64,000 nt of DNA. Source: an uncultured Candidatus Peribacteria bacterium. Lineage in GTDB: Bacteria; Patescibacteriota; Gracilibacteria; RBG-16-42-10. Below the pieces are notes generated by a model. The model had not been told where the DNA came from and ran no database searches. It saw only the letters and a program-made list of their open reading frames with translations. Below are positions 9,729-38,824 of the stretch, in pieces. Every line of letters begins with the position of its first letter. Positions within the stretch are counted from its first letter, which is position 1. Made by a program: the position numbers and the translations under genes. Location of the stretch: contig CAZERA010000001.1 of assembly GCA_964514565.1 (NCBI GenBank), forward strand, positions 124,001-188,000. Direction: 5' to 3'.

Positions 9729-9756
9729 TTGACAAATTTGATTAGAGTGTTATATT
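9729..9756 (+). promoter_or_regulatory. Sigma70-type promoter of ORF 9788
   Basis: TTGACA-16 nt-TATATT with TG extension. Confidence 0.65.
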
Positions 9757-9787: not shown

Positions 9788-11047
9788 ATGGATTCCAGAA
9801 TTAAATCTGTTGGTTCTCGAGTAGCCTCAGTTGGTCGTTCACCAAGTTTCATCGGTGGGCTTCGTAAATCTTTTGCTACCGTGCTCACTGCCGGTGCTCT
9901 TGCTGCTGCTTGCGGTATAGAGGTCAAAGATGCCGATTTCACAGCTACTCCAGTATCGTTGACACCTGCAGATGGTGGCAGTAGTGAAACAGGCGCTGAT
10001 GCTCAGAATCCTACTGATACTATTGATGCTTCAGCTCCTGATGTCGTCACCACAGATATAGTAGATGTAGTTATTGTAGATACGGGAACTGATAGTGGCA
10101 CTCCAGTAGATATGGTTGATGCAAGTATTCCTGTGGATATGCCTATTACTCCCGATGTCACACCAATTACAGATCGTGGTGTTGATGTGCCTGTAGATAT
10201 GCCACCAGCTGACGTTGGGGTGCCTTGTCGTCCAACTGGAATGCATGTAAGTGGTGACAATATTAATAACTCGTACGATACACAAAGTGCAGTGCCGGTA
10301 GTAATTGATACTACAGGTGACTGCTCTGCAACTGGTACTTCATTGGCATTCTCTATTAACTACGGTGTAGCTGGTTCAGTAATTAGACCCGTGTTAGCTA
10401 TTGATTCAACAAGAAATCAAATCAGAACAAACTTAGATCTTACTGATCCATCATTAGTAGGTTTTCCTGACAACCATAGAAATATTCGTTTAAATACAAT
10501 GGTTGCAGGCCTCCCAGTTGAAACTAGTTTCTTACGAAAAAGGTATCCAGCAACATTTCAAACAGCTGGTACTGTATTTGGGTCGTTTGTTGGGACTGTT
10601 GAATATAATGCTCGCATTCAGTTAAATGACACTAGTACTCCATCACGTCCCGATGACTTTAATAGAGATGCGTTGGTTGGTATTGATCTTACTAATGATA
10701 CTGGTTCCACACTACTTTGGCATGGAGCTCTCACGACATGTGACTTTTCTGCTACAACTAATCCTTGTATAGATGAGGTGTTGGATGGATCTGGGCGTAC
10801 TCAGAGATGTTTTATTCCTAATATGTTAACGGCTGATAGGACAAATGGCTTTTGTGATGTTTCAGAGGGAAGAGTATTTACTTATCCAGGCGGCGGAGTT
10901 AGCTATGGAATGCAAATTCGAGGCGTTGACTTTAATCGCGTTCGCACAGCAACTCCTGTTGGCGGCTATATAAGAGCAGCGGTTTACATTACTGATATTG
11001 CTCAGAATGTAACAATTGGTAATTATCGATTCCGTCGGGGAGACTAA
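9788..11047 (+). CDS. Orphan lipoprotein-like protein with Asp/Pro/Val-rich linker, lysine-poor
   Basis: 419-aa ORF with its own promoter and terminator; lipobox-like LAAAC after a long basic N-terminal extension; Cys-containing C-terminal domain. Confidence 0.75.
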   Translation: MDSRIKSVGSRVASVGRSPSFIGGLRKSFATVLTAGALAAACGIEVKDADFTATPVSLTPADGGSSETGADAQNPTDTIDASAPDVVTTDIVDVVIVDTGTDSGTPVDMVDASIPVDMPITPDVTPITDRGVDVPVDMPPADVGVPCRPTGMHVSGDNINNSYDTQSAVPVVIDTTGDCSATGTSLAFSINYGVAGSVIRPVLAIDSTRNQIRTNLDLTDPSLVGFPDNHRNIRLNTMVAGLPVETSFLRKRYPATFQTAGTVFGSFVGTVEYNARIQLNDTSTPSRPDDFNRDALVGIDLTNDTGSTLLWHGALTTCDFSATTNPCIDEVLDGSGRTQRCFIPNMLTADRTNGFCDVSEGRVFTYPGGGVSYGMQIRGVDFNRVRTATPVGGYIRAAVYITDIAQNVTIGNYRFRRGD

Positions 11048-11077
11048 TATTTCAAGTATAACGCATTGAATATCTTT

Positions 11078-11101
11078 AAGGGGTTTAGCTAGCCCCTTTT
11101 T
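11078..11101 (+). terminator. Intrinsic terminator
   Basis: AAGGGGTT-tagct-AGCCCCTT followed by a T run. Confidence 0.65.
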
Positions 11102-11146
11102 AAGTATTATGAAATTGTGCTACAATGTAAGGAAAAACAAAAACAA

Positions 11147-14100
11147 ATGAAAAAAATAGCGATTATAGTTTTTATACTGTGTTTAGTTGCTAATAATGCT
11201 ATTGATCTAGCTCAAGTAAATAATAAATCGTTAGCTTCATATAGCCAAACAATTACTGTTGATGATTCTGGTGATGCTGATAATCATTCAGGGGCAAACT
11301 GTGGTAGCCCTTGTACTTTGAGAAGCGCAATATTAGCGACTAATGCATCAACTGGGACAGTGTTAATTAGATTTAGTTCTGATTTTAGTATTGATGTTCC
11401 AACAAATCTAGATGCTCTTCAAGCATCTAATAGTTCAATTGTAATTGATGGTGAAAACCATAATATTGTTATTAATGCGACTTCAACTTCAGTAGATTAT
11501 GCATTTAGACTCGGTTCTATCATTGATTCGGGGCCAGTATTAATAAACAGTACTATTAGAAACTTAACTTTAACCAATTTCCGTAATGGGATTGTTATTT
11601 ATGGTGATAACAATACTGTTGAAAATGTTATAGTCCAAGGTCCAGAGGCATCTGGTGTATGTACTAATGAAGGTGAGCGAGGGATATTAGTACTCGGTCG
11701 TGATACTGAAGATACTATTGGTAATACCATCAGTAATAGTTATATAACTTGTTACCGTAAGGGCATCATGGCTCAATCTGTGATGGGTATTTCAATTACA
11801 GGGAACACAATTATTAGAAATACTTCGAATGCTGACCTAACTACAGTTCCTGATTTTAATGATGCTAATCCTTGTTTTACTGCTGGTATAGAAATTCAGG
11901 GCCATTATTTTTTCGGATCTGCTTCAGACCGTAAAAACAATATTACTAATAATGAGATCACTTTTAATGGTTTTGAAACTCCAATTGGTACATGTGTTAG
12001 TCAACCATTTCGTTCAGCCGGTATTATTCTTGATTTATATGGAGATACTCCTGTTGCTCATGACACGCCGGCTCATCTCAATCGGATAGCCAACAATGAA
12101 ATCACTGACAACGTCGGAGATGGTATTAGTGTATTTCAAGCTTATAAGAACGAAATCGTGAGCAATCATATTGCTCGTAATGGGTCAGTACCATCAATTC
12201 TCGATGCTACTTCTGATAAAGGAAATGGTATTTCTTTATTTTGTACTGAAGGTGGAATCTCTGGGGCAGTAACTACCGGTAATCTGATGTATCGCAATAC
12301 GATTGAGCACAATGCAGACAATGGTATTTTTGTCGGTAAGTTTTGTGAAGTGACTAGTACACCTACTTCTGATTCAAATGCATTTAATCCAATTGTCGAA
12401 AATACCATTTATGAAAATGGTCGTGTTAGTGGTACGGCTGATCCTAGCAATGATGATGGTATCGGTATTGATCTCCAAGATCAGTCAAATCTGAGCGCTT
12501 TTTCATATACTAGTGGCAATACTAATATCAATGAAAATGATACTGCTCTTACTGATGGCGGTAACCAAATGGCAGATACACCTGTGATTACTAGTGCATC
12601 TTACAATACAGGACTTTCTACTTGGACAGTAAATGGTACTCAGTTTATACCATCAAGTGGTTCAGGATCTATGGTGGAGCTCTATCAAGTAGGCTGTGCT
12701 AGCAATAATCTACCCACCAATTTAACTACTTGTGATTTAGATACATATAGTGGTGCTCCCAATGCGTATGGCTATGGCCAAGGACGTATTTTCTTGGGAC
12801 GAACATATACTACAACTGGTGAATGGGTGATTAATATTCCTCCAAGTGCTGGTTTCAGTGGAGGTTTGCTTACTGCTACCAATACTATGGTAGATGTAAA
12901 TCCTAGCTGTGCGACACCTCCTACTGTTTTGGCTGAGTTTGTCGGCGGTGGTAGCAATGCGCTTTGTTCTAGTTCAGAATTCAGTGCCAACTTTTTAGCA
13001 CAAGCGCCTACACCATTCACATATGGTGGTAATCTGACCAAACTAGTGACACCACAGAGCATCGTACAAGGTGGCACAGGTACTACTATCTTGAGCTTTA
13101 CCAATACTGGCAATGGCTCATTTGCTTCAGTGGATATTACCGACGCTCTTAGTACTCCCAGTGTGGACTATGTTGCTGGTACGTGTAGTTGGGCAATCAA
13201 TGCTATGCCAGTTACACCAGGTAACTGTGACTTTACTGCTGATACAATAAATTTGTTTGGATTTTTATCTTTGTTGCCTGGTGCGACTCTGCATGTAGTA
13301 TTTGATTTTACCGTGCCACTGTCTGCGACACCTGGGCCACATACTAATACAGCAACAGCTACAGTGACTCCTGCATTTGCTGTCGCACCTAGCTCTGCTA
13401 CATTCCAAGTGACTGCTGCTCCGGCGGCAGTTTATGCTGGAGCATTTAGTAAAATTGTCGCGCCTTCTAGTATCCCCACTAGCGGTACTGGCACTACTAT
13501 CCTGAATATGACCAATACGGGAAATGATAGTATGTCATCGGTTGTTTTTACTGATAATTTAGCTGATGCCGGTGTTGAGTATGTACCTAGTAGTTGTCAT
13601 TGGAATATCAATGACGCACCTATTGGTACCAATGAATGTCATTTTACTGGTAACGCGATCAACATGACAGCGTTCCCAGGGCTGGCTCCTAGCGAGACAG
13701 TGCAGGTGACGTTTGATTTTACTGTCCCAGCTGATGCGACACCAGGACCACACGTGAATACTGTTTATATCACTACAACGCCAGGAGGATTGCTTGGTTC
13801 TACCACTGCAGACTTTGCTGTAACAAGCACACCGCCTCCAGTTTGTACTACTACTGGTACCAATGTCGATGCGACATTTACTGCCAACGGTGTTAGCCAT
13901 GGTCCATCTATCGAGATGTATCCTAGTGCTTTAGTTTTAGAAAATAGCCATTCAACTCAAGGCGACAATCCCATTAATTTCAACTGGATTGTGGACGGTA
14001 CCTCACAAGGTACTGGCACCCAAATTACATTGAACCTACCTGCTGGTACTCATGCAGTGACCCATGTCATCAGCGATTGTGATGGATCGTATGATGTAAG

Positions 14101-16096
14101 TACTATATCAGTAACAATTAAAAACTTACCTGCTGCCCCAGTGAATAGTATGACTCTGCATAAGAGTATTTCACCAGCTACCAATCTCCATATTGGTGAT
14201 TTAGTGACTGTAGTAGTGCAAGTAGAAAATCCTCTCACCAGTACTGGCTTTACCACTATTGATCTCGCTGACGATCTCAGTGGGCTCAGTAATCTAGTGC
14301 CAGTTTGTAACTATAGTGTTGGGTCGATGCCAAGCCTCAGTTCTGATACATGTACTGTTACTACCGGCGGACAAATTTCTTTGGACTTGAGTGTTACACC
14401 ACTCACTATTGGGCAAAGTCTTTTCATTCGTTACGTCGCTGCAGTGACTGGTACACCAGCTGTTTATCATGATGCTGTTGGCTATCAGTCTTCAGTACCT
14501 ACTGTGTCTCCATCTCCAGCTGTCGCTAATGCTGACTTTACTGTCGTAGCTGCTGCTCCAGGCGGACCTGTTTGTACGACTACCAGTACGGTTGATGCTA
14601 GTTTTAGTCTCAATGGTCAGCCAACACCTTCACAGCTTATTACCGCCGATGCTGGCACTTACAATTTAGTGAATGCAAGCACAAGTGGGGATACCCCAGT
14701 GGTATCTCGCTGGTATGTGAATGGTGAATTGCAATCAGAAAATGCTGGTACTTTGACCAGAGCAATTACTGAAAGTACAACCTTTACTTTGCTCAAGGTG
14801 GATTGTGACGGTAGTGCTGCGATGGATACTCTCACTGTGTTTATTCCAGATATCAGTGTGCCTCCAACTCCAGATCCAACTGTAAGCCCAACTCCAACTG
14901 CCACACCTACTACTACACCTTCGCCAACTGGGTCTCCTACCCCCAGTGCTTCACCCACAGCTACTCCTACAGCGACACCAATACCTACAGTTGGATTTAC
15001 AGTAGATAAGGAGATCATGAATCCCGTTGCTCTCTATACTACTGATAGTCCCAATCACACCATCAAAATCAAATCGACTATTCACAATACTGGTTCGGCT
15101 ACGAGCCTCTATACCTTTACTGATCCCGTCAGCAATGTGTTCATGCCTGTAGCACTAGTCAATGATTCAGCTGGTGGTACCAATGAAAGTATTCCTGGTC
15201 AGATCAAGGTCAGTGCAATCTCAATTCCTGCCCAAAGCAGCAAAGCAATCATTTATACTTTGATGATCAAATCTGCCACTGATTTCCCACTGAGCACTTA
15301 TCATCTTGATAGCAATGCTGCTAGTGATGATAGCGATTTCTACCCAGTACGGATCAAAACAGCAAGACTAGGAGACACTAGTAATGATGATCCTGATAAT
15401 TTGCTTGATGCACCTGACGGTATCGTGGTGAATCTCGGTGACCGCGGTAGTGTAGTTGTGGATCTCGGCAAAGATAAAATTTTGGTTGATGGTGACGGAG
15501 ACGATTTAGCTATTGCTCTCACCAAAGGAAAAATTACTGTAGCCGCTTCACAAGATGGGAAGACATTTGAAAAACTCCGTGGTACCACTGCTTTTGATTT
15601 AACTGATGCTGACATGACATGGGCTCGTTACATCAAGATCACTGACAACAGTGTCGATGCTCTCAATACAGCCAATATCGATGCAGTTTGTCTGCTCAAC
15701 CTTGGTGTCGGTGTTGCTGACACCTCACAAGTTACCTTGGCCTCAGATAATCGTACCAATGCTGTGCCTGCTTATATTGATGTGACATCAGCTTTTGATG
15801 AACCACTCAGTAGTAGTGACTGTCGTAGTCCTAAAGCTGCTGTTGCTAAACAAGCTAGAACTATTGAACTAGAACCTCCTGCACCGGTGGCTCCTTATGT
15901 GCCTACACCGATTATAACACCCGCTGCACCAGTGATTCCTGAACCTATTCCAGTTGTACAGTTACCAAAAACAGGACCAGAGAATGTAGTATTTGTTCTG
16001 GGGGCAGCTTTATTGGCTGCTTGGTTGTTCCGTTCTCGTCTCATGCCCAAACGACTCAAAGTAAAAGTTACAGATGAGCAGGTAGGCCGAAAGTAA
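11147..16096 (+). CDS. Large surface protein: beta-helix, DUF11/Ig-like and PKD-like repeats, PT linker, LPXTG-type anchor
   Basis: Signal peptide, CTLRSAI (CSLREA-like) motif, N/G-rich beta-helix repeats, duplicated KxVxP..GTTIL.TNTGN modules, duplicated VCTTT..VDAxF modules, C-terminal LPKTG + TM + basic tail. Confidence 0.85.
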   Translation: MKKIAIIVFILCLVANNAIDLAQVNNKSLASYSQTITVDDSGDADNHSGANCGSPCTLRSAILATNASTGTVLIRFSSDFSIDVPTNLDALQASNSSIVIDGENHNIVINATSTSVDYAFRLGSIIDSGPVLINSTIRNLTLTNFRNGIVIYGDNNTVENVIVQGPEASGVCTNEGERGILVLGRDTEDTIGNTISNSYITCYRKGIMAQSVMGISITGNTIIRNTSNADLTTVPDFNDANPCFTAGIEIQGHYFFGSASDRKNNITNNEITFNGFETPIGTCVSQPFRSAGIILDLYGDTPVAHDTPAHLNRIANNEITDNVGDGISVFQAYKNEIVSNHIARNGSVPSILDATSDKGNGISLFCTEGGISGAVTTGNLMYRNTIEHNADNGIFVGKFCEVTSTPTSDSNAFNPIVENTIYENGRVSGTADPSNDDGIGIDLQDQSNLSAFSYTSGNTNINENDTALTDGGNQMADTPVITSASYNTGLSTWTVNGTQFIPSSGSGSMVELYQVGCASNNLPTNLTTCDLDTYSGAPNAYGYGQGRIFLGRTYTTTGEWVINIPPSAGFSGGLLTATNTMVDVNPSCATPPTVLAEFVGGGSNALCSSSEFSANFLAQAPTPFTYGGNLTKLVTPQSIVQGGTGTTILSFTNTGNGSFASVDITDALSTPSVDYVAGTCSWAINAMPVTPGNCDFTADTINLFGFLSLLPGATLHVVFDFTVPLSATPGPHTNTATATVTPAFAVAPSSATFQVTAAPAAVYAGAFSKIVAPSSIPTSGTGTTILNMTNTGNDSMSSVVFTDNLADAGVEYVPSSCHWNINDAPIGTNECHFTGNAINMTAFPGLAPSETVQVTFDFTVPADATPGPHVNTVYITTTPGGLLGSTTADFAVTSTPPPVCTTTGTNVDATFTANGVSHGPSIEMYPSALVLENSHSTQGDNPINFNWIVDGTSQGTGTQITLNLPAGTHAVTHVISDCDGSYDVSTISVTIKNLPAAPVNSMTLHKSISPATNLHIGDLVTVVVQVENPLTSTGFTTIDLADDLSGLSNLVPVCNYSVGSMPSLSSDTCTVTTGGQISLDLSVTPLTIGQSLFIRYVAAVTGTPAVYHDAVGYQSSVPTVSPSPAVANADFTVVAAAPGGPVCTTTSTVDASFSLNGQPTPSQLITADAGTYNLVNASTSGDTPVVSRWYVNGELQSENAGTLTRAITESTTFTLLKVDCDGSAAMDTLTVFIPDISVPPTPDPTVSPTPTATPTTTPSPTGSPTPSASPTATPTATPIPTVGFTVDKEIMNPVALYTTDSPNHTIKIKSTIHNTGSATSLYTFTDPVSNVFMPVALVNDSAGGTNESIPGQIKVSAISIPAQSSKAIIYTLMIKSATDFPLSTYHLDSNAASDDSDFYPVRIKTARLGDTSNDDPDNLLDAPDGIVVNLGDRGSVVVDLGKDKILVDGDGDDLAIALTKGKITVAASQDGKTFEKLRGTTAFDLTDADMTWARYIKITDNSVDALNTANIDAVCLLNLGVGVADTSQVTLASDNRTNAVPAYIDVTSAFDEPLSSSDCRSPKAAVAKQARTIELEPPAPVAPYVPTPIITPAAPVIPEPIPVVQLPKTGPENVVFVLGAALLAAWLFRSRLMPKRLKVKVTDEQVGRK

Positions 16097-17711
16097 TTGG
16101 TGCTGGCAACCTATTGTTGTCATTGTGTCTGTTCTGCCAATTGCCTAGGCTTATTGTGCCGTCGCTCATGACAGAAAAACTGAAGCGATCACCTGAATGC
16201 GTAAGGTGTCTGAGGTGACCTGCAGTTTCATGCTGCGGTCCGCGTTCGAGTTGGTGCAGTATTCGGATAGCATCACTATGTCTATGTTGGTAGCCAGCTG
16301 GTAATGCTGCGCGTGTGCCATTGTCAGTTAAAAATTCCGTCAAAGCTTGCACGAAAGTGACATGAGGAGAGTGTCCAGTGGATACTGTAATTGTTTTGCT
16401 AAATGTATTATGTGCTGCCGGAGTTTCTGCTGTCGTGACAATTGGAGTAGGAGAAATATCGCTATCTACTACTGGAGTGACAATATTTGAGACTGTTTGG
16501 ACGCTAATTGGAGCAGGCTCATTGGCCTGTGCTTGTGGTACTGGTGTGCCTTGGGAGCTGGCGATGGCATTGAGACCAGCCGCTAATAAGATTGCAGCAA
16601 AGCTTTGGCGGATGTTTCTTCTGAAAGAAAAGATACTAGCAATACTAGAACGCACAACATCACTAATTTTATTGGCTGCAGTTGTAATTGAATTTTTCAA
16701 TGAATCCAACCAATGTATTTTTTTCTGTTGTTCAATTGGTGTGTGTCGAGCGGTTGCTTCAGCTGCTTGAGCGTGAAGTTCTATGTCATCAATAACAATA
16801 GAATGTAGTTCGTCTGCTAGATATCTATTTGTCGCTTCACTACTCATTAGGCCGTGAGCTGTTCCTAAGTTTGGTCCCACGCCAGGCTCTGTATCTCGAT
16901 GAGGAATAGCTAGATTACCAGTTACACCTATGCTGGGCGGCGCTGGAGGAAGAATGGTCCTGCTATGTTCTCTGCTACTTCCAGATGAGCTTGTTCTAAG
17001 CTTTACCAAATCGAATATTGCTACCGTTTCTTGATCAGCATCATCGAGCTTTGGTCTTAAATCATCTTCCAGATCTTTTGCATCTACAAAAGCATCAGGG
17101 GTTTCAGAAAGACTAACGATTGGGGCTGTATCATCTATTAAATCTTTCCAATCTGGATCTACTGCTACATCAGCCGTAGGTCTATCAGAAGGGAGACTCT
17201 TTTTTACTAAGTCATCTGAAGGTGCCATTACCACCGTAGCTCCTCTAAGGCTTCTTCGTAGGCTAGGTGGTGTGGCCATATATAAATGGTCGGTGTGGAT
17301 ACCAAGTACTGGTGTAGCATCAGAAATAGGTAGGAGACTACCTGGAGGCGGTGGGATTATAGATTTAATTGCGCTTCTAGCGACCTGGCCAGGGGTAATT
17401 GGTGCTCGGAGTGATGGGCGTCGAGATGATGGGGACTCAATAGGTCTAATTCCTGGTTGTTTTGAATCTCTTGGTGGGGCAAAGGGAATAGTTGTCCGTA
17501 ACTGTACTGCGCTGACATCTTTATTGCCATGGCCGTAACTTGTGTGGTCATGTTCTTCTGCTAATCTGGGACCAGGTCTTACCGTTGCTACAGCCCTTAC
17601 GCCAGTAGTTACATCCTTCCTACTAGTATTAGGATGCTTTGGAGTTTCAGGGGTATTGTCAATATCCCATATTAATTCCTCATTTGTATCTGGTGCTTCT
17701 ATCCCTGCCAT
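16068..17711 (-). CDS. Orphan single-pass membrane protein with a long Pro/Ser/Thr/Asp-rich N-terminal region
   Basis: 547-aa ORF; hydrophobic segment FAAILLAAGLNAIA; His-rich C-terminal domain. Confidence 0.7.
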   Translation of the reverse strand: MAGIEAPDTNEELIWDIDNTPETPKHPNTSRKDVTTGVRAVATVRPGPRLAEEHDHTSYGHGNKDVSAVQLRTTIPFAPPRDSKQPGIRPIESPSSRRPSLRAPITPGQVARSAIKSIIPPPPGSLLPISDATPVLGIHTDHLYMATPPSLRRSLRGATVVMAPSDDLVKKSLPSDRPTADVAVDPDWKDLIDDTAPIVSLSETPDAFVDAKDLEDDLRPKLDDADQETVAIFDLVKLRTSSSGSSREHSRTILPPAPPSIGVTGNLAIPHRDTEPGVGPNLGTAHGLMSSEATNRYLADELHSIVIDDIELHAQAAEATARHTPIEQQKKIHWLDSLKNSITTAANKISDVVRSSIASIFSFRRNIRQSFAAILLAAGLNAIASSQGTPVPQAQANEPAPISVQTVSNIVTPVVDSDISPTPIVTTAETPAAHNTFSKTITVSTGHSPHVTFVQALTEFLTDNGTRAALPAGYQHRHSDAIRILHQLERGPQHETAGHLRHLTHSGDRFSFSVMSDGTISLGNWQNRHNDNNRLPAPITFGLPAHL

Positions 17712-17814
17712 AACTAGTAATGATTATACCTAGTTAAGCTATCACGACCAATTTATTTGGTCCAGCTTTACTAATGATGAAAAATATATCTTGGTTAAAC
17801 TTGACTGAGCCAAC

Positions 17815-17841
17815 CTAGCACTCTATATTTATGAGTGCTAA
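17815..17841. promoter_or_regulatory. CIRCE element (HrcA operator) upstream of groES
   Basis: CTAGCACTC-N9-GAGTGCTAA, one mismatch to the consensus. Confidence 0.93.
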
Positions 17842-17869
17842 CACGCATTTATCCTTAATTATACTCTGT

Positions 17870-18181
17870 ATGGCTCAAGCAGTTTCATCAGTACAATCAA
17901 TTAAGCCTTTGCGCGATCACATTGTAGTGCAAGCGCAACCTCAAGAAACCATGACTTTGTCAGGTATTGTGTTGCCAACTACTGGTTCTCAAGAGAAACC
18001 TCAGACCGGTACCGTAATGGCTGTAGGCCCAGGTAAAGTGGCAGATGGTAAAGTAGTACCAATGTCAGTAAGTGTAGGAGATACCGTGCTTTTTTCTAAA
18101 TATTCTCCCACTGAAGTCAAAGTAAAAGATCAAGACTATCTTATTTTGCGTGAAGAAGATGTGCTCGCTGTGCTTTCTTAA
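17870..18181 (+). CDS. groES: Co-chaperonin GroES
   Basis: IKPLRDHIVV, SGIVLP, AVGPGK, LREEDVLA. Start ATG 17870, since the upstream ATG lies inside CIRCE. Confidence 0.97.
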   Translation: MAQAVSSVQSIKPLRDHIVVQAQPQETMTLSGIVLPTTGSQEKPQTGTVMAVGPGKVADGKVVPMSVSVGDTVLFSKYSPTEVKVKDQDYLILREEDVLAVLS

Positions 18182-18193
18182 GTATTTGAATAA

Positions 18194-19876
<1,683 letters not shown>

Positions 19877-19877
19877 T

Positions 19878-20507
19878 CTAAAACGCGCCACTTTCTTGCA
19901 TAGCTTTGAGCATGCTGATGATGGCGAACAATACGGCGACAGCGCCAACAAAATACCCAGCGGCAAGAACTGCTGGGTTATTTTGGTATATACCAACCAA
20001 CAATAAGATTACAAAGATTACTTCTAATGTCATCTTCAATTTGCCATAGGCATTGGCGCCTTGAATCTTGCCTTTCCAGAGCATATAGAAGATCACATTG
20101 AGTACCACCATCATTCCTTCCAAGAAAATGATCAGATAAAGCGTCCAGTGTTTCAGAGTAGCTGCCAAAAAGAATACAATGCTGCCAATCAGAATCTTGT
20201 CCGCCAAAGGATCTAGGAGCGTGCCCATCTCAGTAATTTGTTTGCTATTACGAGCTAATGCTCCATCCCAAAGATCAGTGAGGGCAGTCACAATAAATAA
20301 AATCAAAATAGTATAGTTCCAAAAGTCAGATACCTCTTTCTCAGTAAAAAAGAGTGCCCACAAAATCGCTGTCCCAATGAATCTCGCGAGAGTTAGAATG
20401 TTTGGAGTGATGCCAAAAAACTTCCAGATATGGTCAAATGTCCTAGCCATAAAAGCATCATCGATTTTTTGGAACTTGTACACTAACTCACTTATTAAAC
20501 GTAGCAT
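19878..20507 (-). CDS. pgsA: CDP-alcohol phosphatidyltransferase (PgsA-like)
   Basis: PNILTLAR, DLWDGALAR..T..G..LDPLADK. Confidence 0.88.
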   Translation of the reverse strand: MLRLISELVYKFQKIDDAFMARTFDHIWKFFGITPNILTLARFIGTAILWALFFTEKEVSDFWNYTILILFIVTALTDLWDGALARNSKQITEMGTLLDPLADKILIGSIVFFLAATLKHWTLYLIIFLEGMMVVLNVIFYMLWKGKIQGANAYGKLKMTLEVIFVILLLVGIYQNNPAVLAAGYFVGAVAVLFAIISMLKAMQESGAF

Positions 20508-20602
20508 AGATTAAAATTGAGTTTAATTTTCATCTTTCTTTAATCTGGAAACTTTGGCTTTTTGAGCTGTCCGTACTATTTTCTGGTTACTTCACCCCAC
20601 CC

Positions 20603-21274
20603 ATGAAAATATTGCTCATTGAAGACAATAAAGAATTGGCGCAGATAGTAAAGAGGCAACTCGGGTCTTTTCAGGTCAATGTCGACAATGCTTACACCGG
20701 TGAGGAGGGGATCAGGCTAGCTCGGACAGCTTATTATGACTTGATAGTGACGGATTTATTGCTGGATATCGCTTTAAGTGGTTTAGATGTAATTCGGTTG
20801 ATTCGTAAGTTTGATCGCTATGTGCCAATTGTAGTGATCTCCGCTCTCCAAGACATTGAGACCAAGATCAGCGCCTTCGAGGCTGGTGTCGATGACTATA
20901 TTCTCAAGCCATTCCATATTGATGAAGTAGCGGTTAGACTGCGACGTCTGTATCAAAGATCAAATCGTCCTTTTGTCACCCAACTAGCCTATCGGGGACT
21001 GACATACGACGTAGATAAAAAATGTATTCAGTACAAAGAGCAAAAGATTTTTCTCAAAAATAAAGAAGCGGCTTTGTTTGAATATATGATGAATCATACT
21101 GAGCGGCCTTTATCGCGAGACGAACTGGTGACGTCAGTATGGCATCTCAACCAAGAGCCCAATAGCAATGTAGTAGATGTCGCAGTGAAAAAGTTACGCC
21201 AAAAAATAGATAAACAGCTGGGTACTAGCTATATCACTACACTCCATGGGGTAGGTTACCGTTTTGGTCTGTGA
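20603..21274 (+). CDS. OmpR-family response regulator
   Basis: MKILLIED, phosphoacceptor D in LIVTDLL, DDYILKPF, wHTH with GVGYRF. Confidence 0.93.
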   Translation: MKILLIEDNKELAQIVKRQLGSFQVNVDNAYTGEEGIRLARTAYYDLIVTDLLLDIALSGLDVIRLIRKFDRYVPIVVISALQDIETKISAFEAGVDDYILKPFHIDEVAVRLRRLYQRSNRPFVTQLAYRGLTYDVDKKCIQYKEQKIFLKNKEAALFEYMMNHTERPLSRDELVTSVWHLNQEPNSNVVDVAVKKLRQKIDKQLGTSYITTLHGVGYRFGL

Positions 21275-22800
21275 CCGGTGTGGCTACGGTTTGCTACTGC
21301 ATGTGTCATGTATTCTCGAATCACTTGAATTTTTACTTCACCTGAGCGCACTGCATTGCTGGCTTGCACAGCCGTAGCGATCTCTTTTGCAATCGATTGA
21401 GTCTGGGTGTCGTCAGTAGTATTGGCATCTACAAAAGCTCTTACTTCTCGTCCAGCTTGGATTACAAATGCTTTTTCTACGCCTTTTTGACTGAGAGCTG
21501 CTTCTTCCAGTGCTTTCATACGACCGACATAATCTTCCAATGATTCATGATGACGAGCTCCAGGTCTAGCAGCAGAGATAGCATCAGCGAGCTGCACTAC
21601 ACGGGCCTCAATACTACGATATGGCTCAGCTTCATGATGAGCATAAATTGAGTGTACTATGTCTGGATGTAAGTGAAAGTTTAGTGCCAGATCACGACCA
21701 ATTGCATCATGAGCGCCAGCAATATCAGCATCCACACCTTTACCAATGTCATGCAGTAAACCACCGACAATACAAATGTACGGATCACAGCCTATTTCTT
21801 CTGCAATCATCCGACCAAGTACTGCTACTTCAATTGAGTGACGATAAATGTTTTGGCCAAAACTGGTGCGATAATCTAGACGACCTACTAATTTGACTAA
21901 TTCCGGTGGAAAGTCAGTGATACCTAAATATTTGCAAGCTTTGAGCCCGATTTTCATCATTCGGTCTTCCGTATACTTTTGGGTGTCAGTGATCGCTACG
22001 TCCAAAAGGAGATTGGGATTTTTCTTCATTCGTTCTAATGCCCCCTTAATGATATACCGGCGCCACAAATCATAACCAAAAATACGTACCCGTTTTTCTA
22101 CTAGCTCCATTTTTAGCTCGGCTCCTAAGCTAGTCTGGAGGTGAATAATCTTACTCATTTGCTCATCACCAACTATGCGTAAAAACTCTGGATCAGAAAA
22201 TTCAATTTCAATCAAAGTAGGATCTCGGGTGCTTTCTCCTGAGTAGCGTTGATTGATTACATTCATGATTGCTTTGGCATGGTCTTCAATCTTCTGTTCG
22301 TAGTGATACAGCTTTTTCTCCCAGCGTTTAGTTTGATTCTCTAGCTCACACTCCAAGGTGTCCTCCATAATCATGGCTAGGCCCGCTGTAGTATTGATTT
22401 TCGCCATATTCTCTAGACTTTCGAGTTGTTTACTAATGATCGATTGGTATTGCTTTCGCAGTTCGCTAAAGTGATCTTTTTTTTCATTGAGTAATCCTTG
22501 TTTTTCTGTAAATGCTTTGTCTTCGTGCTCTAGACTATTGATGCGTTCATTTAAATGTTCTGTGGTAGTGCTCAAAAATACTTGGTCATGCTCAATCTGA
22601 GTGGCCAAAAGTTCTTGACGTCTTTCGATATCATTTTTCGCACGTGCTAAAATATTCTCAGCACGTAACTCAGCTTGTTTTTTGAGGAGTTTGGCAGTTT
22701 GATTTGCCTCTGCTTGTTTGCGTGAGTTTTTGATTTTCTTGAGGCTCATGAAAGCCACTATGCCAATCAATAAACCAATAATACCTACTAGGTAATTCAT
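21256..22800 (-). CDS. rny: Ribonuclease Y-like HD-domain protein
   Basis: N-terminal TM and coiled coil, RTSFGQN, LLHDIGK, ADAISAARPGAR, IQAGREVR. Confidence 0.9.
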   Translation of the reverse strand: MNYLVGIIGLLIGIVAFMSLKKIKNSRKQAEANQTAKLLKKQAELRAENILARAKNDIERRQELLATQIEHDQVFLSTTTEHLNERINSLEHEDKAFTEKQGLLNEKKDHFSELRKQYQSIISKQLESLENMAKINTTAGLAMIMEDTLECELENQTKRWEKKLYHYEQKIEDHAKAIMNVINQRYSGESTRDPTLIEIEFSDPEFLRIVGDEQMSKIIHLQTSLGAELKMELVEKRVRIFGYDLWRRYIIKGALERMKKNPNLLLDVAITDTQKYTEDRMMKIGLKACKYLGITDFPPELVKLVGRLDYRTSFGQNIYRHSIEVAVLGRMIAEEIGCDPYICIVGGLLHDIGKGVDADIAGAHDAIGRDLALNFHLHPDIVHSIYAHHEAEPYRSIEARVVQLADAISAARPGARHHESLEDYVGRMKALEEAALSQKGVEKAFVIQAGREVRAFVDANTTDDTQTQSIAKEIATAVQASNAVRSGEVKIQVIREYMTHAVANRSHTGHRPKR

Positions 22801-22876
22801 CGCCAATAGACTTAGACAGAAGCACTATATAGAACTTCTTTTCTTTCAGCTACTATGGCTATGCTTATTCTTTATT

Positions 22877-23320
22877 ATGCGTGTATTTCGTTGGCTAGCT
22901 TTGCTAGGTATAGTGGCTTTAGTTGGTTATGGTGTCACACACTCTGTATTTATATCAGCCAATGGTTTGCATTGGTATTGGGTAGAGGTAGCAACGACTG
23001 AGCCAATGTGGGAAAGAGGATTGATGGGCAGAGTTTCTATGGCCAGTAATCAAGGCATGCTGTTTATTTTCCCTGACGAAAGAGTTGTATCTTTTTGGAT
23101 GAAAGATACGCTTGTGCCTTTGGATATGATCTTTTTGAACGCCCAAAAACAAGTAGTCAGTATATCAGCCAATACCCAGCCATGCTTAAATCAAGCAGCC
23201 CAAACATGCCCTACCTTTCAAGCGGATCAACCAATTAAATATGTATTGGAGCTTAAGGCTGGGGAGACGAAAGAGAAACAGATTCTTGCTGGGGCACAAG
23301 CATACTGGCTCCTGTACTAG
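22877..23320 (+). CDS. DUF192 family protein
   Basis: GLMGR, GMLFIF, FWMKDTLVPLDMIF, YVLELKAG. Confidence 0.92.
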   Translation: MRVFRWLALLGIVALVGYGVTHSVFISANGLHWYWVEVATTEPMWERGLMGRVSMASNQGMLFIFPDERVVSFWMKDTLVPLDMIFLNAQKQVVSISANTQPCLNQAAQTCPTFQADQPIKYVLELKAGETKEKQILAGAQAYWLLY

Positions 23321-24116
23321 TGAGTGGGAGCTCAGATTTTCGACTATCCTGGACAGGGGTATCAATGAAAAGCTTGGTATTGGTGAGTACCTTGTCTACG
23401 GCAGTGAGCTCAGGACTATTAGCAATGATTTGTTCTGATGCTGAGCTTTGGGGAAGATCGATAGAATCCGCTGAATCATTATTAGTTGTACTACCTCCAC
23501 TACCCAATGCAATATCTTCATTACTGAGACTTTGAAGTGAAATATCTTGCTTCTCAGCCACAATTTTAATTGCTTCTGCTTTTACTTGTCGCAAAGTACG
23601 TACTTGCTCTTGTGAAGCAGCAACAATCTTTTTTTCAATTACTTTCTTTTCTGTGCTATCACTGATGCTTTGAGCGGCGATGATTGCTTGTTTGTTGTTA
23701 TTATCAATTGCTACAACGGTATTGGTATCGATGGTCTTCTGAGTCTCGACTTGCAGCTTCACTTCACGGGCCCGTTTTTCTGCAAATGACAGATAAATTT
23801 CTGCTTTAGCAGAAGGTGTGTCAGCTAGGCGTAGCATAATATTCTCGCCAATCACTTTGATTGGGTAAAGAATATTGTCGGAGGTAATATGATCACTTTG
23901 ATAGGCATACACACTAGTCCAACCTGCTGACACCATCATGAACAAAGCCACGCTCACTGTGGCTAGCTTTGGTAAGAAAGTAGCGAGGAAGCTTTGTTCT
24001 ACACGCATAGCCATAAACTTGTACCACAAACGGATACGCAAGCGTTTACGAGCCCAGAATGAGGGCTTAATGTGCGATAATTCCTTGAAAATGTGTTCGA
24101 GTGATGGCTTGGGCAT
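23253..24116 (-). CDS. Putative membrane anti-sigma factor (DUF5667-like)
   Basis: Directly downstream of the ECF sigma; TM followed by LYPIKVIGENI...FAEKRAREV. Confidence 0.7.
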   Translation of the reverse strand: MPKPSLEHIFKELSHIKPSFWARKRLRIRLWYKFMAMRVEQSFLATFLPKLATVSVALFMMVSAGWTSVYAYQSDHITSDNILYPIKVIGENIMLRLADTPSAKAEIYLSFAEKRAREVKLQVETQKTIDTNTVVAIDNNNKQAIIAAQSISDSTEKKVIEKKIVAASQEQVRTLRQVKAEAIKIVAEKQDISLQSLSNEDIALGSGGSTTNNDSADSIDLPQSSASEQIIANSPELTAVDKVLTNTKLFIDTPVQDSRKSELPLTSTGASMLVPQQESVSLSSPQP

Positions 24117-24636
24117 GAATTGGAGAGAAGGTGCGAGCGATTTCTTGCTTGAGGGTAGTAATTGCGCGATGGAGCATGACCCGGATATTGCCCTCAGTCT
24201 TGTGAAAGAACTGCGCTAATTCTTGATTGGTCATCTCACTAAAAAACTTGAGTTGAATGATTTCTTGTTGGCTTTCGGGAATCTTGCTCATGGCATAGAG
24301 CACAGTTGCTGTGTCATAGCTGATATTGAGATTCTCCACTAGTTTGTCAGGAGAGACCAAGAGATGATCTACATCCTCTATATCTACTAATTCTCTGCGC
24401 GTACGATAGTAATCAATCAAATGATTGCGAGCGATACCATAGATCCAATTTTTGAAATCGGAACGACTGGGATCATAACTATCAAACTTTTCTAACGCTT
24501 TGAGAAAGAGTTCTGACGTCAGGTCAAAGGCCAAATCTTTATTGTGCCCTGAACGGAATAGTACATAGCGATACAACTGATCGAAGTATTGCTCGTAGTA
24601 CTTTGTGAAGATTTGATACTGAGTAGTTGTAACCAC
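24067..24636 (-). CDS. ECF RNA polymerase sigma factor
   Basis: DLTSELFLKA, WIYGIARNHLIDYYR, region 4 EGNIRVMLHRA. Confidence 0.93.
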   Translation of the reverse strand: MVTTTQYQIFTKYYEQYFDQLYRYVLFRSGHNKDLAFDLTSELFLKALEKFDSYDPSRSDFKNWIYGIARNHLIDYYRTRRELVDIEDVDHLLVSPDKLVENLNISYDTATVLYAMSKIPESQQEIIQLKFFSEMTNQELAQFFHKTEGNIRVMLHRAITTLKQEIARTFSPIHAQAITRTHFQGIIAH

Positions 24637-24693
24637 TTGACCAAGACGTTAATAAGTACGGAGATCGATAATAAACGTTACACCATTTCCACC

Positions 24694-25188
24694 CTAGAAG
24701 ACATGATACTCGTGAACTGTCTTGTATTCCACTAATTCTTTATCGCTGAACCATAATGGTACTTCCACAGCAGCATCCTTTGCATCACCTGAAGCGTGCA
24801 CGATGTTGAATACGATTTTACCAGTAATATCTGCTTGGCCATAGCTGACATGACAGAAGTCACCACGAATGGTACCTGGTAATGCTGATTTTGGTTCAGT
24901 GCTGCCTACTAATTTTCTTACTACTTCGATCGCCTCTACACCTTCGAGTACCATAGCGATGACTGGGTTGGTAGAAATTGCGTCAGTGAGCATTTTGCGT
25001 ACTTTTGCGCCACGACGAATTTCAATATCTTCTGTGTAGTGCTTACGAGCAAACTCTTCATTGACATGAGTCATTTTGAGACCGATCATTTTGAGACCAG
25101 CACGTTCGAAACGTTGGATTACTTCACCAATCAGACCTCTTTGGATACCATCTGGTTTAATCAGTACCAAGGTGCGTTGCATCAACAT
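24694..25188 (-). CDS. ndk: Nucleoside diphosphate kinase
   Basis: TLVLIKPDG, PGTIRGDF, NIVHASG. Confidence 0.97.
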   Translation of the reverse strand: MLMQRTLVLIKPDGIQRGLIGEVIQRFERAGLKMIGLKMTHVNEEFARKHYTEDIEIRRGAKVRKMLTDAISTNPVIAMVLEGVEAIEVVRKLVGSTEPKSALPGTIRGDFCHVSYGQADITGKIVFNIVHASGDAKDAAVEVPLWFSDKELVEYKTVHEYHVF

Positions 25189-25286
25189 AAATGCGTATAA
25201 AGTTAAAAAAGCATGACCATACTATCATGAGCTTCTCAAGAATAAAAATAACCTTTATGCTCTAGACAGGATGGCCTTTTGTTGTA

Positions 25287-25315
25287 TTGACAAATTTAGA
25301 CTTTGTTGCTAAACT
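25287..25315 (+). promoter_or_regulatory. Sigma70-type promoter of ORF 25343
   Basis: TTGACA-17 nt-TAAACT with TG extension. Confidence 0.65.
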
Positions 25316-25342
25316 TCCAACCTTCTCTTTTAATAAAATACT

Positions 25343-27157
25343 ATGGATTTGAAGACTAGATTAGTATCTCCTGCATATACTCGTACACCCTCTTCAACCC
25401 GTAACTCATTGTTTGGAGCATTAGCCATTGGTGCTAGTACTCTTTTATCACCAACTAAAGCATTTGCTCAGCCTCAAGTAGCATCTACAGTACATAATTG
25501 TCCTACACGGCTTACTGGTCCCCACAGCTCTAGAGAGTGGCAAGAGAATGGTTTGACATTTTATATGTGTGGTGGAACAACTTCATTCCCCGAAGAGGCT
25601 AGAAGAAACTATTTTTTCAACGCATTTGAAGCTTTTGTTCATGCTAGCACTGACAGTACCGATATTGCTGCACATCAAAGTGCTTTGCCAGAGCTTAATT
25701 TTAATTTGAGGACATCGGCACGTAGAGCGCTTGATTTAAGTCAACTAGCATTACCATTGAGTATTGGCCGCCAGGTGACACCTGAGCAAGTTGCTACTCG
25801 TCATCGTGAGAATGAGATTATTAAGGCTGCCAACATGCAGGCAGTTAACGGATTTTTGAATCGTCTGGTTCCTTCGACTACAGTTCCTAATTCAGCTGAA
25901 AGTAGAGTCGTGGCGCAAAGAGTTCTAGAAGTTCGAAGCTTAGCAATTCAATTGTTGCGAGTGACCGATTCTAATCTTTCTAGTTTGCTGTCTGTTTATC
26001 ATGACTCTTTGTTGCCCATTGCTGATAGTTTGCAAATTTGTGGTGGGACAAGAACAGCTCGAGTAAATGGTGAGGCTTTCACTATTTTGAATACATTTCT
26101 TTGTGCGAGAGCTGGTACTCTTTCATATCGAGACTTTCTGCGTGTAGCTACTGATCCAAATTTAGAATCTGCCCTACCTGGTCAGCATTGGCCATCCACT
26201 TTAGTAAATGGTAGAGGTGATCGAATTAATGCTAACTTTGCCTCTACTTTAGGACTTGTTGTTGATGGTCGTACAGCTAACATGGACTCACTTGTGAGAT
26301 CTATTAATGAGCAATTTTATTTACTACATCTTTACATAAGATTAGTTAATGGGATTGATGAAATTGTTGTCAGGCAAGGTGGTGTCTCAGTAGTAAGTGG
26401 CATTCGACTCACAAATGTTGTTGCAACAACACCTGAAGCGATTGCACGTGTAATTGAACCAGAGAATATGCCATCGGTTGGCACTCCAAATAATCCTAAT
26501 CCTCACCCAACTCCAATCAGTCCTATCGTCCGCCCCAATCCAGGTCAACTCAATGTTGTGGTTAATCCTCCAATCGATACTGCTCAACTTGCTCGTACAC
26601 GTGCTCTTGAAGCTTATCAATCTCGTGTACGCATGTGGCGTATCATTGGTATCAGTGCAGCTGGTGCCGGTGCTGTTACATTAGGCACAGGTTGGGGACT
26701 TAGTGCTGCCAATGCTAGTGAAGCACAAAATGTACCTAATACACCTGAGAATCGTGCTCGCCATGCTGAGATTGAACAAATAAGAGCTGGTGTTTATCAC
26801 ACTCAAGCTGATGTTGATCATGCTAATGCCCGTCTACAAGCTATTCATACTGGATTCTTAGCTTCAGTTACTCCTTATCAAGATACTGCTAGTACATTGC
26901 AAGTAGTTAGTTATGTAGGGCTAGGTGTAATGATTGCTGGCGGTGCTGTAGCAGCATTGGCTCCAGTGTTGGCTGGTTCTCCACCTGCTCAACCAGCTTC
27001 TCCAAGTCTTGTTCCAACTGGTGGACGTCAAGGACCTCATCCTGCTACCACTCCAGGTAGAAGAACTGAGAATGGTGATGGCCAAGATAGTCAATTTGGT
27101 CTTGCTCCACTGGTTACTAACACTACAGTCGGAGTAACCGCAACGGGTACTTTCTAG
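25343..27157 (+). CDS. Orphan secreted protein, lysine-poor, with a C-terminal Gly-rich hydrophobic hairpin and terminal Phe
   Basis: 604-aa ORF with its own promoter and terminator; signal ending AFA|Q; ends GVTATGTF. Confidence 0.75.
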   Translation: MDLKTRLVSPAYTRTPSSTRNSLFGALAIGASTLLSPTKAFAQPQVASTVHNCPTRLTGPHSSREWQENGLTFYMCGGTTSFPEEARRNYFFNAFEAFVHASTDSTDIAAHQSALPELNFNLRTSARRALDLSQLALPLSIGRQVTPEQVATRHRENEIIKAANMQAVNGFLNRLVPSTTVPNSAESRVVAQRVLEVRSLAIQLLRVTDSNLSSLLSVYHDSLLPIADSLQICGGTRTARVNGEAFTILNTFLCARAGTLSYRDFLRVATDPNLESALPGQHWPSTLVNGRGDRINANFASTLGLVVDGRTANMDSLVRSINEQFYLLHLYIRLVNGIDEIVVRQGGVSVVSGIRLTNVVATTPEAIARVIEPENMPSVGTPNNPNPHPTPISPIVRPNPGQLNVVVNPPIDTAQLARTRALEAYQSRVRMWRIIGISAAGAGAVTLGTGWGLSAANASEAQNVPNTPENRARHAEIEQIRAGVYHTQADVDHANARLQAIHTGFLASVTPYQDTASTLQVVSYVGLGVMIAGGAVAALAPVLAGSPPAQPASPSLVPTGGRQGPHPATTPGRRTENGDGQDSQFGLAPLVTNTTVGVTATGTF

Positions 27158-27177
27158 TCTGTTAATCGGTTTTCCCC

Positions 27178-27212
27178 AAAAGCTTCGTACAGGAAATTGT
27201 GCGGAGCTTTTT
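27178..27212. terminator. Bidirectional intrinsic terminator
   Basis: AAAAGCTTCGTACA-ggaaat-TGTGCGGAGCTTTTT between convergent genes. Confidence 0.75.
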
Positions 27213-38737: not shown

Positions 38738-38824
38738 TAGTAACTAGTAATGAGTGGGTAGCAAGTAGGTGCCCGTATTGTCGCCGTGCATTCGTTACTA
38801 CTTTTTACTTACTAACTATTACTT
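38738..38824. repeat. Degenerate inverted heptamer-arm element overlapping the lgt stop
   Basis: TAGTAAC TAGTAAT GAGTGGG TAGCAAG on +; AAGTAAT AGTTAGT AAGTAAA AAGTAGT on -. Confidence 0.55.

Follow-up and report, generated by a model that had tools for sequence, protein, structure and literature searches.

Compartment-specific lysine avoidance in fast-diverging, anchored surface proteins of a Candidate Phyla Radiation bacterium

The window analyzed here is a stretch of 64,000 nt (G000:C1:124001-188000) from an uncultured Candidatus Peribacteria bacterium, a member of the Candidate Phyla Radiation (CPR), whose genome assembly (G000) comprises 1,117,677 bases in 7 contigs, with a GC content of 42%, ordinary stop-codon use and a completeness of 92.7%. 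Three open reading frames (ORFs) of this window, 9788, 16068 and 25343, code for proteins that contain hardly any lysine in the parts predicted to leave the cytoplasm. They belong to a repertoire of about 20 to 30 genes in the 1.12-Mb genome, to which the distal domains of several giants anchored by SLH domains or sortases have to be added. Within this repertoire, we show that Lys avoidance is specific to the compartment and is maintained by selection in genus-restricted, anchored surface proteins or domains. The features concerned are the following.

9729..9756, plus strand: sigma-70-type promoter of ORF 9788 (TTGACA, 16 nt, TATATT)
9788..11047, plus strand: ORF 9788, Lys-poor lipoprotein (4 Lys, 27 Arg)
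11117..16096, plus strand: ORF 11117, giant beta-helix/DUF11 surface protein of 1,659 amino acids (aa) with an LPKTG sorting signal
16071..16535, minus strand: ORF 16068, extracytoplasmic C-terminal part, residues 393-547 (1 Lys, 8 Arg, 12 His)
16536..16607, minus strand: ORF 16068, single membrane helix, residues 369-392 (no Lys or Arg), preceded by an Arg-rich flank (N terminus inside)
16608..17711, minus strand: ORF 16068, poorly conserved and presumably cytoplasmic N-terminal part, residues 1-368 (15 Lys, 26 Arg)
25287..25315, plus strand: sigma-70-type promoter of ORF 25343 (TTGACA, 17 nt, TAAACT)
25343..25471, plus strand: ORF 25343, signal peptide, residues 1-43, ending in AFA|QP (2 of the 3 Lys)
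25472..26638, plus strand: ORF 25343, ectodomain, residues 44-432 (1 Lys, 33 Arg)
26639..26980, plus strand: ORF 25343, two Gly/Ala-rich hydrophobic helices (433-458 and 521-546) and a 62-aa loop (0 Lys, 4 Arg in the loop)
26981..27157, plus strand: ORF 25343, C-terminal tail with a conserved GPHP..GRR motif (0 Lys, 3 Arg)

Exact residue counts bear out the hand counts with which the original prediction had started. ORF 25343 (604 aa) contains 3 Lys (K4, K39 and K161) and 44 Arg, with one Lys past the signal peptide; ORF 9788 (419 aa) has its 4 Lys at K6, K27, K47 and K251, two of them past Cys42; and ORF 16068 (547 aa), with 16 Lys in total, has K439 as the sole Lys in the 155 aa that follow its helix. 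At a Lys content of 6%, the chance of a Lys-free run of 443 aa, such as that found in ORF 25343, is about 1e-12. Our gene set consists of crude, greedy longest-ORF calls (977 ORFs, 801 of them of at least 150 aa), and among these 801 the fraction of Lys in the sum of Lys and Arg, K/(K+R), reaches the genome minimum in ORF 25343 (0.064) and is tenth lowest in ORF 9788 (0.129), the median over all 977 ORFs being 0.586. The other exported proteins of the window had been described as Lys-rich, and the counts agree: ORF 4184 (Amidase_2 and SpoIID domains) has 46 Lys and 30 Arg, the exported ORF 31762 has 14 and 10, and the lipoprotein ORF 37637 has 24 and 8. At the opposite extreme lies the exported Big_1/Invasin_D3/Cohesin protein encoded at 55469-56686, with 25 Lys and 2 Arg in its mature part and a codon index of 0.73, among the highest in the window.

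The set of three proteins originally proposed proved too small, since at least 20 such proteins are encoded genome-wide. K/(K+R) lies below 0.2 in 26 of the 801 ORFs, and 20 further low-Lys ORFs comprise 17 without a Pfam or NCBIfam family, one nine-fold PKD protein and two proteins with SLH domains. We assigned the 873 ORFs of at least 120 aa to export classes by a simple rule based on a hydrophobic N terminus (250 exported, 124 membrane and 499 cytoplasmic), and the N termini of the low-Lys ORFs were inspected by eye. In steps of 0.1, the mature-part K/(K+R) values number 13, 7, 9, 16, 28, 73, 54, 36, 12 and 2 in the exported class, and 0, 2, 8, 29, 69, 164, 142, 61, 20 and 4 in the cytoplasmic class. 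Values below 0.1 are found in 13 of the 250 exported proteins versus 0 of the 623 others (Fisher p 7e-8), and values below 0.2 in 20 exported proteins versus 4 others. When Gaussian components were fitted on ln(K/R) and compared by the Bayesian information criterion (BIC), two components were preferred for the exported class (633.7 versus 693.2), with a minor component of 13% and a mean of -1.65, and again under a stricter export rule (n = 164; 448 versus 471), while a single component was preferred for the cytoplasmic (843.4 versus 861.0) and membrane (266.5 versus 275.9) classes. The expectation that the distribution would be bimodal has therefore withstood this check, with the exported class bimodal and the other two unimodal.

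The same contrast is seen within single proteins. The n-regions of 20 low-Lys exported ORFs together contain 33 Lys and 38 Arg (0.465) and their mature parts 53 Lys and 539 Arg (0.09), while K/(K+R) in 205 ordinary exported ORFs is 0.565 in n-regions and 0.614 in mature parts; n-region length is similar in the low-Lys and the normal exported proteins (median of 18 in both, p 0.38). ORF 16068 and five homologues have 3 to 19 Lys before the helix and 1 to 3 after it. The SLH-domain proteins, 29 of which are encoded in this 1.1-Mb CPR genome, were compared where the non-SLH part (the passenger) was at least 100 aa long (25 proteins). Passenger K/(K+R) is at most 0.27 in nine of them, and in seven of these nine the SLH domain has a value of at least 0.5; two low-Lys SLH proteins retain three of four Lys at two SLH columns of near-invariant Lys (MAFFT alignment). 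In three of five LPKTG giants, including ORF 11117, Lys is confined to the leader and to the last ~450 aa near the anchor, with 0 to 2 Lys per 150 aa in the middle. These within-protein contrasts (n-regions, the halves of ORF 16068, SLH domain and passenger) indicate that Lys avoidance follows the compartment: outward parts are nearly Lys-free yet retain Arg, and internal or cleaved-off parts use Lys normally. The original claim that only exported portions are affected is supported by the n-regions, ORF 16068 and the seven SLH proteins, but not by the loop between the two helices of ORF 25343, to which we return below.

Two side observations belong with this survey. The five giant LPKTG paralogues of the genome (1,522 to 1,991 aa) have a conserved C-terminal part of ~450 aa in common. 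The longest Lys-free run of the genome, 1,229 residues, is found in a protein of 1,283 aa with nine PKD domains (G000:C4:53166-57017), and its neighbor at C4:57051-58280 is likewise Lys-poor (2 Lys and 27 Arg).

The original prediction also held that the three genes resemble their neighbors in base composition. This is correct for the overall GC content (0.43 to 0.45 versus 0.42) but not for the individual codon positions, as GC3 is lower and GC2 higher. Over all low-Lys ORFs, overall GC is 0.445 (0.416 in the rest), GC2 is 0.488 (0.373) and GC3 is 0.289 (0.362), so that the GC excess is located at codon positions 1 and 2. The codon index, referenced to 24 ribosomal and elongation-factor genes together with GroEL (a set with a preference for CGT, ATC and TTC), is 0.591 in low-Lys ORFs and 0.624 in the rest. 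AGA makes up 0.29 of the Arg codons (0.20 in the rest) and ATA 0.18 of the Ile codons (0.11), while AGR codons, which are one transition away from Lys codons, account for 203 of 577 Arg codons versus 3,639 of 13,899 (p 3.6e-6). In amino acid terms, the low-Lys ORFs have 1.0% Lys (6.0% in the rest), 4.0% Glu (5.5%) and 6.5% Arg (4.1%), and their Thr, Ala, Pro, Gly, Ser and Asn contents are increased too. Since GC3 of the low-Lys genes is below that of the genome, a high-GC donor is excluded; recent transfer from such a source, which would have undermined the original idea, does not fit this codon use (GC3 of 0.29 versus 0.36, with more AGA and ATA).

None of the three ORFs has a Pfam family at E ≤0.1 or an NCBIfam family (sub-threshold NCBIfam rows were obtained for ORF 25343 alone), and a protein atlas gave only leads under 0.9. 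A collection of 5.8 billion sequences contains three homologues of ORF 25343, five of ORF 9788 and three of ORF 16068, and a profile of the 25343 family retrieved seven matches among 1.84 billion cluster representatives, each below 1e-30 and none remote. ORF 25343 has matches in 2 of 40 other related genomes, both of the same genus; ORF 16068 in 2 of 12, both of the same genus; and ORF 9788 in 2 of 12, one of the same genus and one of another genus of the family. The relatives referred to below are G001 and G002 (same genus), G003 and G007 (also examined) and G040 (another family of the class). Homologues of the three ORFs are limited to the same genus or family and have only 26 to 48% identity, versus ~86% for neighboring genes. 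A 90.6-kb contig of G001 is collinear with C1:118-208 kb, and the 79 syntenic protein pairs have a median identity of 85.6% (interquartile range of 77 to 92). ORF 25343 is the least conserved of them (25.9%), ORF 16068 the second least (33.1%) and the giant ORF 11117 the fourth (55.5%). The low-Lys proteins are the fastest-diverging genes of their neighborhood.

Every homologue shares the bias, with 1 to 7 Lys and 39 to 63 Arg in nine representatives of the 25343 family, and 1 to 5 Lys and 21 to 31 Arg in eight aligned members of the 9788 family. The residual Lys are themselves conserved, K161 of ORF 25343 in its two closest homologues and K251 of ORF 9788 in its C-terminal type. This exclusion of Lys through near-saturating divergence, under mutation pressure toward A-rich codons, implies continuing selection on the amino acid, rather than to base composition or foreign origin. 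The congener G001 has low-Lys ORFs that are absent from G000. One of its lipoproteins (G001:C6:87860-88963; 367 aa), encoded beside fusA, has zero Lys and 18 Arg and is not found at the same place in G000. In the first 400 kb of G040 (complete, 33.6% GC), 0 of 258 ORFs of at least 150 aa fall under 0.3. Samples from two other genera of the family gave minima of 0.18 to 0.19 (21 and 73 ORFs), and a sample from a third genome of the class gave a minimum of 0.27 (46 ORFs). Hence, as far as sampled, extreme Lys poverty seems to be confined to this genus and its near kin.

ORF 9788 begins with a long n-region and a lipobox-type Cys42, followed by an acidic, disordered stalk (residues 43-145; 21 Asp plus Glu, 2 Lys plus Arg) and a head (residues 145-419) with conserved Cys, predicted as a tandem beta-sandwich in which block values of the predicted local distance difference test (pLDDT) are mostly 65 to 85. 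Cys42 is invariant in all eight aligned homologues, in keeping with a lipobox; the -3 position is a non-canonical Ala, and the homologues seen have Val or Leu in four cases and another residue in the rest. The corresponding lgt gene is present in the window at 38812-39645 (match to PF01790, E 4e-58). In the partner gene of ORF 9788, ORF 11117, the encoded C terminus has the LPKTG motif, hydrophobic segment and Lys/Arg tail of an LPXTG protein, and the genome codes for two PF04203 sortases. The 3' ends of ORFs 11117 and 16068 overlap convergently by 29 bases (16068-16096). Homologues of ORF 16068, whose C-terminal ~110 aa are a conserved domain rich in His and Arg, overlap the 3' end of the giant gene in this way in G001 and G002 too, and a lipoprotein gene lies immediately upstream of the giant gene also in G003 and G007. 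This gene order makes 9788, 11117 and 16068 one conserved surface module. The description of the three genes as stand-alone units is accurate for ORF 25343 only, which lies between ndk and a comM-like gene as a separate unit, since the other two flank the giant in this module.

The 9788 family (ORF 9788, P0006 to P0010 and G001:C6:13841-15055) is made of two N-terminal types and two head types. Compared with P0009 and P0010, ORF 9788 is 78% identical over residues 1-145 and then 26 to 28%; compared with P0006 and P0007, identity is 34 to 39% in the N-terminal part and then 72 to 77%. The slot of ORF 9788 in G001 is occupied by a lipoprotein of 404 aa (3 Lys, 26 Arg) that has no BLAST match in G000 and combines the N-terminal type of P0006 and P0007 with the C-terminal type of P0009 and P0010. 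All four combinations are therefore found, which demonstrates that parts are swapped as cassettes within this family and indicates that lineages have exchanged the beta-sandwich head.

Residues 50-360 of ORF 25343 are predicted to be all-alpha (pLDDT of 70 to 88), with invariant Cys233 and Cys254, and a low-confidence linker follows the ectodomain. Conservation within the family is highest in the two-helix region. The C terminus of all nine representatives reads G-x-T/S-F and is preceded by the GPHP..GRR motif and by what is predicted to be a short beta-hairpin; this T/S-F ending resembles the C-terminal Phe signal of outer-membrane proteins, and the lineage is thought to be single-membraned. 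No Foldseek match was found at E ≤0.001, and a wide structural aligner returned only three-helix or TPR-like rows (Z ≤8.9), below the level that is meaningful for helical models. Short contig pieces 95 to 100% identical to 24600-27300 occur in runs labelled as activated sludge, wastewater and sediment metagenomes (four studies; DNA runs only, at low depth).

Promoters were compared as well, a check that the original prediction had proposed. The promoters of ORFs 9788 and 25343 have 13 identical bases in common (TATTGACAAATTT), and a perfect TTGACA precedes 7 of 21 low-Lys genes at a distance of up to 150 nt, versus 37 of 852 others; among genes with an upstream gap of at least 100 nt, the counts are 7 of 13 versus 20 of 315 (p 1.4e-5). 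However, a k-mer search upstream of the low-Lys genes for a special regulon motif returned the ordinary -35 hexamer only, and the shared TTGACA is the ordinary housekeeping consensus, with no special regulon signal. Its enrichment does show that many low-Lys genes are self-standing transcription units. Export of the three ORFs by the twin-arginine translocation (Tat) pathway was considered and rejected, as they have no RR motif and neither PF00902 nor PF02416 was found in the genome at the completeness given above. One low-Lys lipoprotein (G000:C3:80222-82024; 18 Lys, 62 Arg) has a textbook twin-arginine signal, TRRRFLGVLGAALAASC, despite the failure to find TatA or TatC.

Taken together, the original observation is confirmed and wider than first stated, while its interpretation is only partly supported. 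The three proteins had been thought to act away from the surface of the cell that makes them, in another compartment, and this conflicts with their predicted anchors. Judging from their sequences, the low-Lys proteins are held on the producer's own envelope, ORF 9788 by a lipid on its lipobox Cys (with lgt present), ORFs 25343 and 16068 by membrane helices, and further proteins of the set by SLH domains. We see about even chances that they serve as contact proteins on the cell's own surface, diversifying rapidly while selection continues to act against exposed Lys, and form a repertoire restricted to the genus or family. An attached life on other cells is presumed for CPR bacteria, and their contact proteins are mostly orphans. 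The low-Lys proteins may form the outermost layer facing a partner or host, in which ORF 9788 would act beside the giant LPKTG adhesin as a beta-sandwich head on a stalk, ORF 16068 would be a bitopic protein displaying a small His/Arg domain, and ORF 25343 a helical ectodomain atop a Gly-rich helical hairpin. Exposed epsilon-amino groups would be harmful in this layer, the likeliest cause being Lys-directed proteolysis or covalent chemistry that comes from neighbors, from the host or from enzymes on the surface of the cell itself. Domains embedded in the wall and wall-zone enzymes would be unexposed and hence keep their Lys.

Several points weigh against this interpretation of own-surface contact proteins. 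The export rule is crude (Ddl, SSB, PfkB, MnmA and RpoA are false "exported" calls in the window), and the stricter rule misses ORF 9788, although false positives swell the normal mode and do not generate the low-Lys one. Taken over all 25 SLH proteins, K/(K+R) shows no difference between SLH domain and passenger (Wilcoxon p 0.47), and many passengers are Lys-rich. If both helices of ORF 25343 span the membrane, its Lys-free 62-aa loop should be cytoplasmic. Many exported proteins, such as the Ig-like ORF 55469, are Lys-rich, so that "exposed" must denote a subset that lacks an independent definition. The structure models of ORFs 9788 and 25343 are of middling confidence (mean pLDDT of 55 to 60). 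Finally, neither a Lys-specific protease nor a surface Lys-modifying enzyme was found in the genome, nor any extracellular system for Lys-directed conjugation or degradation. The inventory of proteases and cross-linkers consists of one SLH-bearing S8 subtilase, two HtrA-like proteases, the two sortases and one transglutaminase-core protein, none of which is Lys-specific to our knowledge. The gene for the last of these (C1:354278-355174) lies between two low-Lys genes, but its product has no signal peptide and was dropped as a surface cross-linker. N-glycosylation sequons are not enriched (observed/expected of 0.92 vs 0.98).

The main rival is a physical explanation, by which Lys, the least sticky and most flexible surface residue, was removed (and Glu reduced) to obtain adhesive or self-assembling surfaces, with Arg kept. 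Protein interfaces disfavor Lys and favor Arg, and the shifts in Lys, Glu and Arg given above go in this direction. So do the beta-sandwich, PKD and helical modules, which are typical of adhesins, and the scarcity of both Lys and Arg in several giants and SLH passengers. We nevertheless consider it rather unlikely, since it leaves unexplained both the near-absolute rule (1 to 5 Lys per 400 to 600 aa, in all homologues) and the Lys-rich Ig-like/cohesin surface protein in the same window.

Delivery into a host is the sense of the original prediction, in which Lys-poor proteins would be sent to the host envelope or cell, mimicking its exoproteome or evading Lys-directed degradation or conjugation. 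The extreme divergence and the cassette swaps fit partner-interaction genes, and Lys deserts that protect toxins, as described in a 2026 review (PMC13696103), provide a precedent. Peribacteria are inferred to be symbionts, with large extracellular proteins that vary between strains (Anantharaman et al. 2016, PMC4736985). However, all three proteins carry a feature for retention in the producer's envelope (lipobox Cys or helices resembling stop-transfer segments), others have SLH domains, and ORF 9788 is the conserved neighbor of a wall-anchored giant. Pfam and NCBIfam scans found no secretion or delivery system, toxin, enzymatic domain or host-like sequence, and fold searches returned generic helical or Ig-like rows only. 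Action in a host compartment thus has no positive support and is in conflict with the anchors, and we regard delivery as unlikely. ORF 25343 appears to be the case least closed to it, since its Gly-rich hairpin, with a loop that is also Lys-free, could in principle enter another membrane.

It is very unlikely that the bias reflects economy or chemistry, that is, that an auxotroph keeps scarce imported Lys out of proteins it could not recycle, or that Arg is preferred, for stability or charge, at the pH of the habitat. The composition does move toward Ala, Gly, Ser, Thr and Asn, and alkaline-adapted secreted enzymes show Lys-to-Arg shifts. However, the whole cytoplasm and most exported proteins are Lys-rich, the low-Lys genes lack the codon adaptation of abundant proteins, and G040, a genome of the same class, has no such tail (see above). 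Most amino acid synthesis is absent from Peribacteria (PMC4736985), which would favor sparing. Foreign origin, in which the genes would keep the amino acid composition of a high-GC, Lys-poor donor, is hardly credible and already largely refuted, for although GC at codon positions 1 and 2 exceeds that of the rest of the genome, the lipoprotein at C3:80222 has its Tat-like RRRFL signal in a genome where TatA and TatC were not found and the nearest protein-language-model neighbors of ORF 25343 are Myxococcota hypotheticals (score of 0.88, under the 0.9 lead level), GC3 is under the genome mean and synonymous codon choice follows the genome, homologues are syntenic in the genus with no relative beyond it among the 1.84 billion representatives, Lys stays excluded even where identity has dropped to 26% and mutation pressure leans toward AT, and n-regions of the same genes use Lys normally.

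What can be stated is that a compositional mark, tied to one compartment and unrelated to GC, persists through extreme divergence and picks out ~2 to 3% of the genes, all of them fast-evolving and surface-anchored. If this mark tracks exposure or partner contact, it would provide a handle on interaction genes from sequence only and would indicate an unrecognised extracellular, Lys-directed pressure. A bolder form of the own-surface interpretation, which we think improbable at present, would make the near-total absence of Lys a proteome-level signature of the layer with which an episymbiotic CPR bacterium touches its partner, resulting from Lys-directed attack or capture at the cell-cell interface or from a need to enter the partner's envelope. 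In that case, mature-domain K/(K+R) could flag interaction genes in uncultured symbionts, and the Lys-free, Gly-zipper-like hairpin would make ORF 25343 a contact protein that inserts into a membrane.

We found no description of a class of Lys-purged exported or surface proteins in low-GC bacteria or CPR in the literature covered, which leaves out most subscription journals. The closest accounts concern other aspects. The Peribacteria genomes of Anantharaman et al. (PMC4736985) are of the same lineage and, in the accessible part of the text, have S-layer genes, lipoproteins, a sortase and large exported proteins in which strain variation is concentrated; that part stresses Cys-rich proteins and mentions lysine 0 times, and it describes neither a bias against Lys that is limited to exposed parts nor an exchange of cassettes. 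The head of ORF 9788 is like stalked Ig-like adhesins of the MSCRAMM (microbial surface components recognizing adhesive matrix molecules) kind in being modeled as a tandem beta-sandwich. Foldseek returned generic tandem Ig/FnIII and adhesin rows only, the best being cytokine-receptor FnIII pairs, SdrG/ClfA, SiiE and invasin. Template modeling (TM) scores are at most 0.47 and identities at most 13%, ORF 9788 has no Pfam match, and it has an N-terminal lipid anchor instead of a sortase signal. Alkaline-adapted secreted enzymes also have Arg for Lys in exported proteins, but such a shift should hit all exported proteins, and here most keep Lys.

The nearest parallel is that of lysine deserts, defined in the review cited above (PMC13696103) by an uninterrupted run without Lys that covers at least 50% of the protein length. 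ORF 25343 qualifies (443 of 604 aa, 73%) and ORF 9788 narrowly falls short (203 of 419 aa, 48%). Genome-wide, 33 of the 801 ORFs qualify, 20 exported, 11 membrane and 2 cytoplasmic by our crude classes. Depletion must not be due to GC, and in the low-Lys set it is not, given the genome and GC3 values above. In the portion seen, the review deals with toxins, proteins of the ubiquitin system, Actinobacteria (surveyed in PMC10665810) and phages, the words "secreted" and "extracellular" being absent from it, and it credits the Lys-poor catalytic chains of AB toxins to London & Luongo 1989 and Hazes & Read 1997. Lysine deserts and AB toxins have in common with the low-Lys set that, in particular domains, Arg takes the place of nearly all Lys, beyond what base composition can account for. 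Theirs meet ubiquitin or Pup in the cytosol, whereas the proteins described here are extracytoplasmic, anchored, without a toxin domain and from a CPR bacterium of 42% GC, which carries the concept of the lysine desert beyond degradation systems of the cytosol to the surface of bacterial cells.

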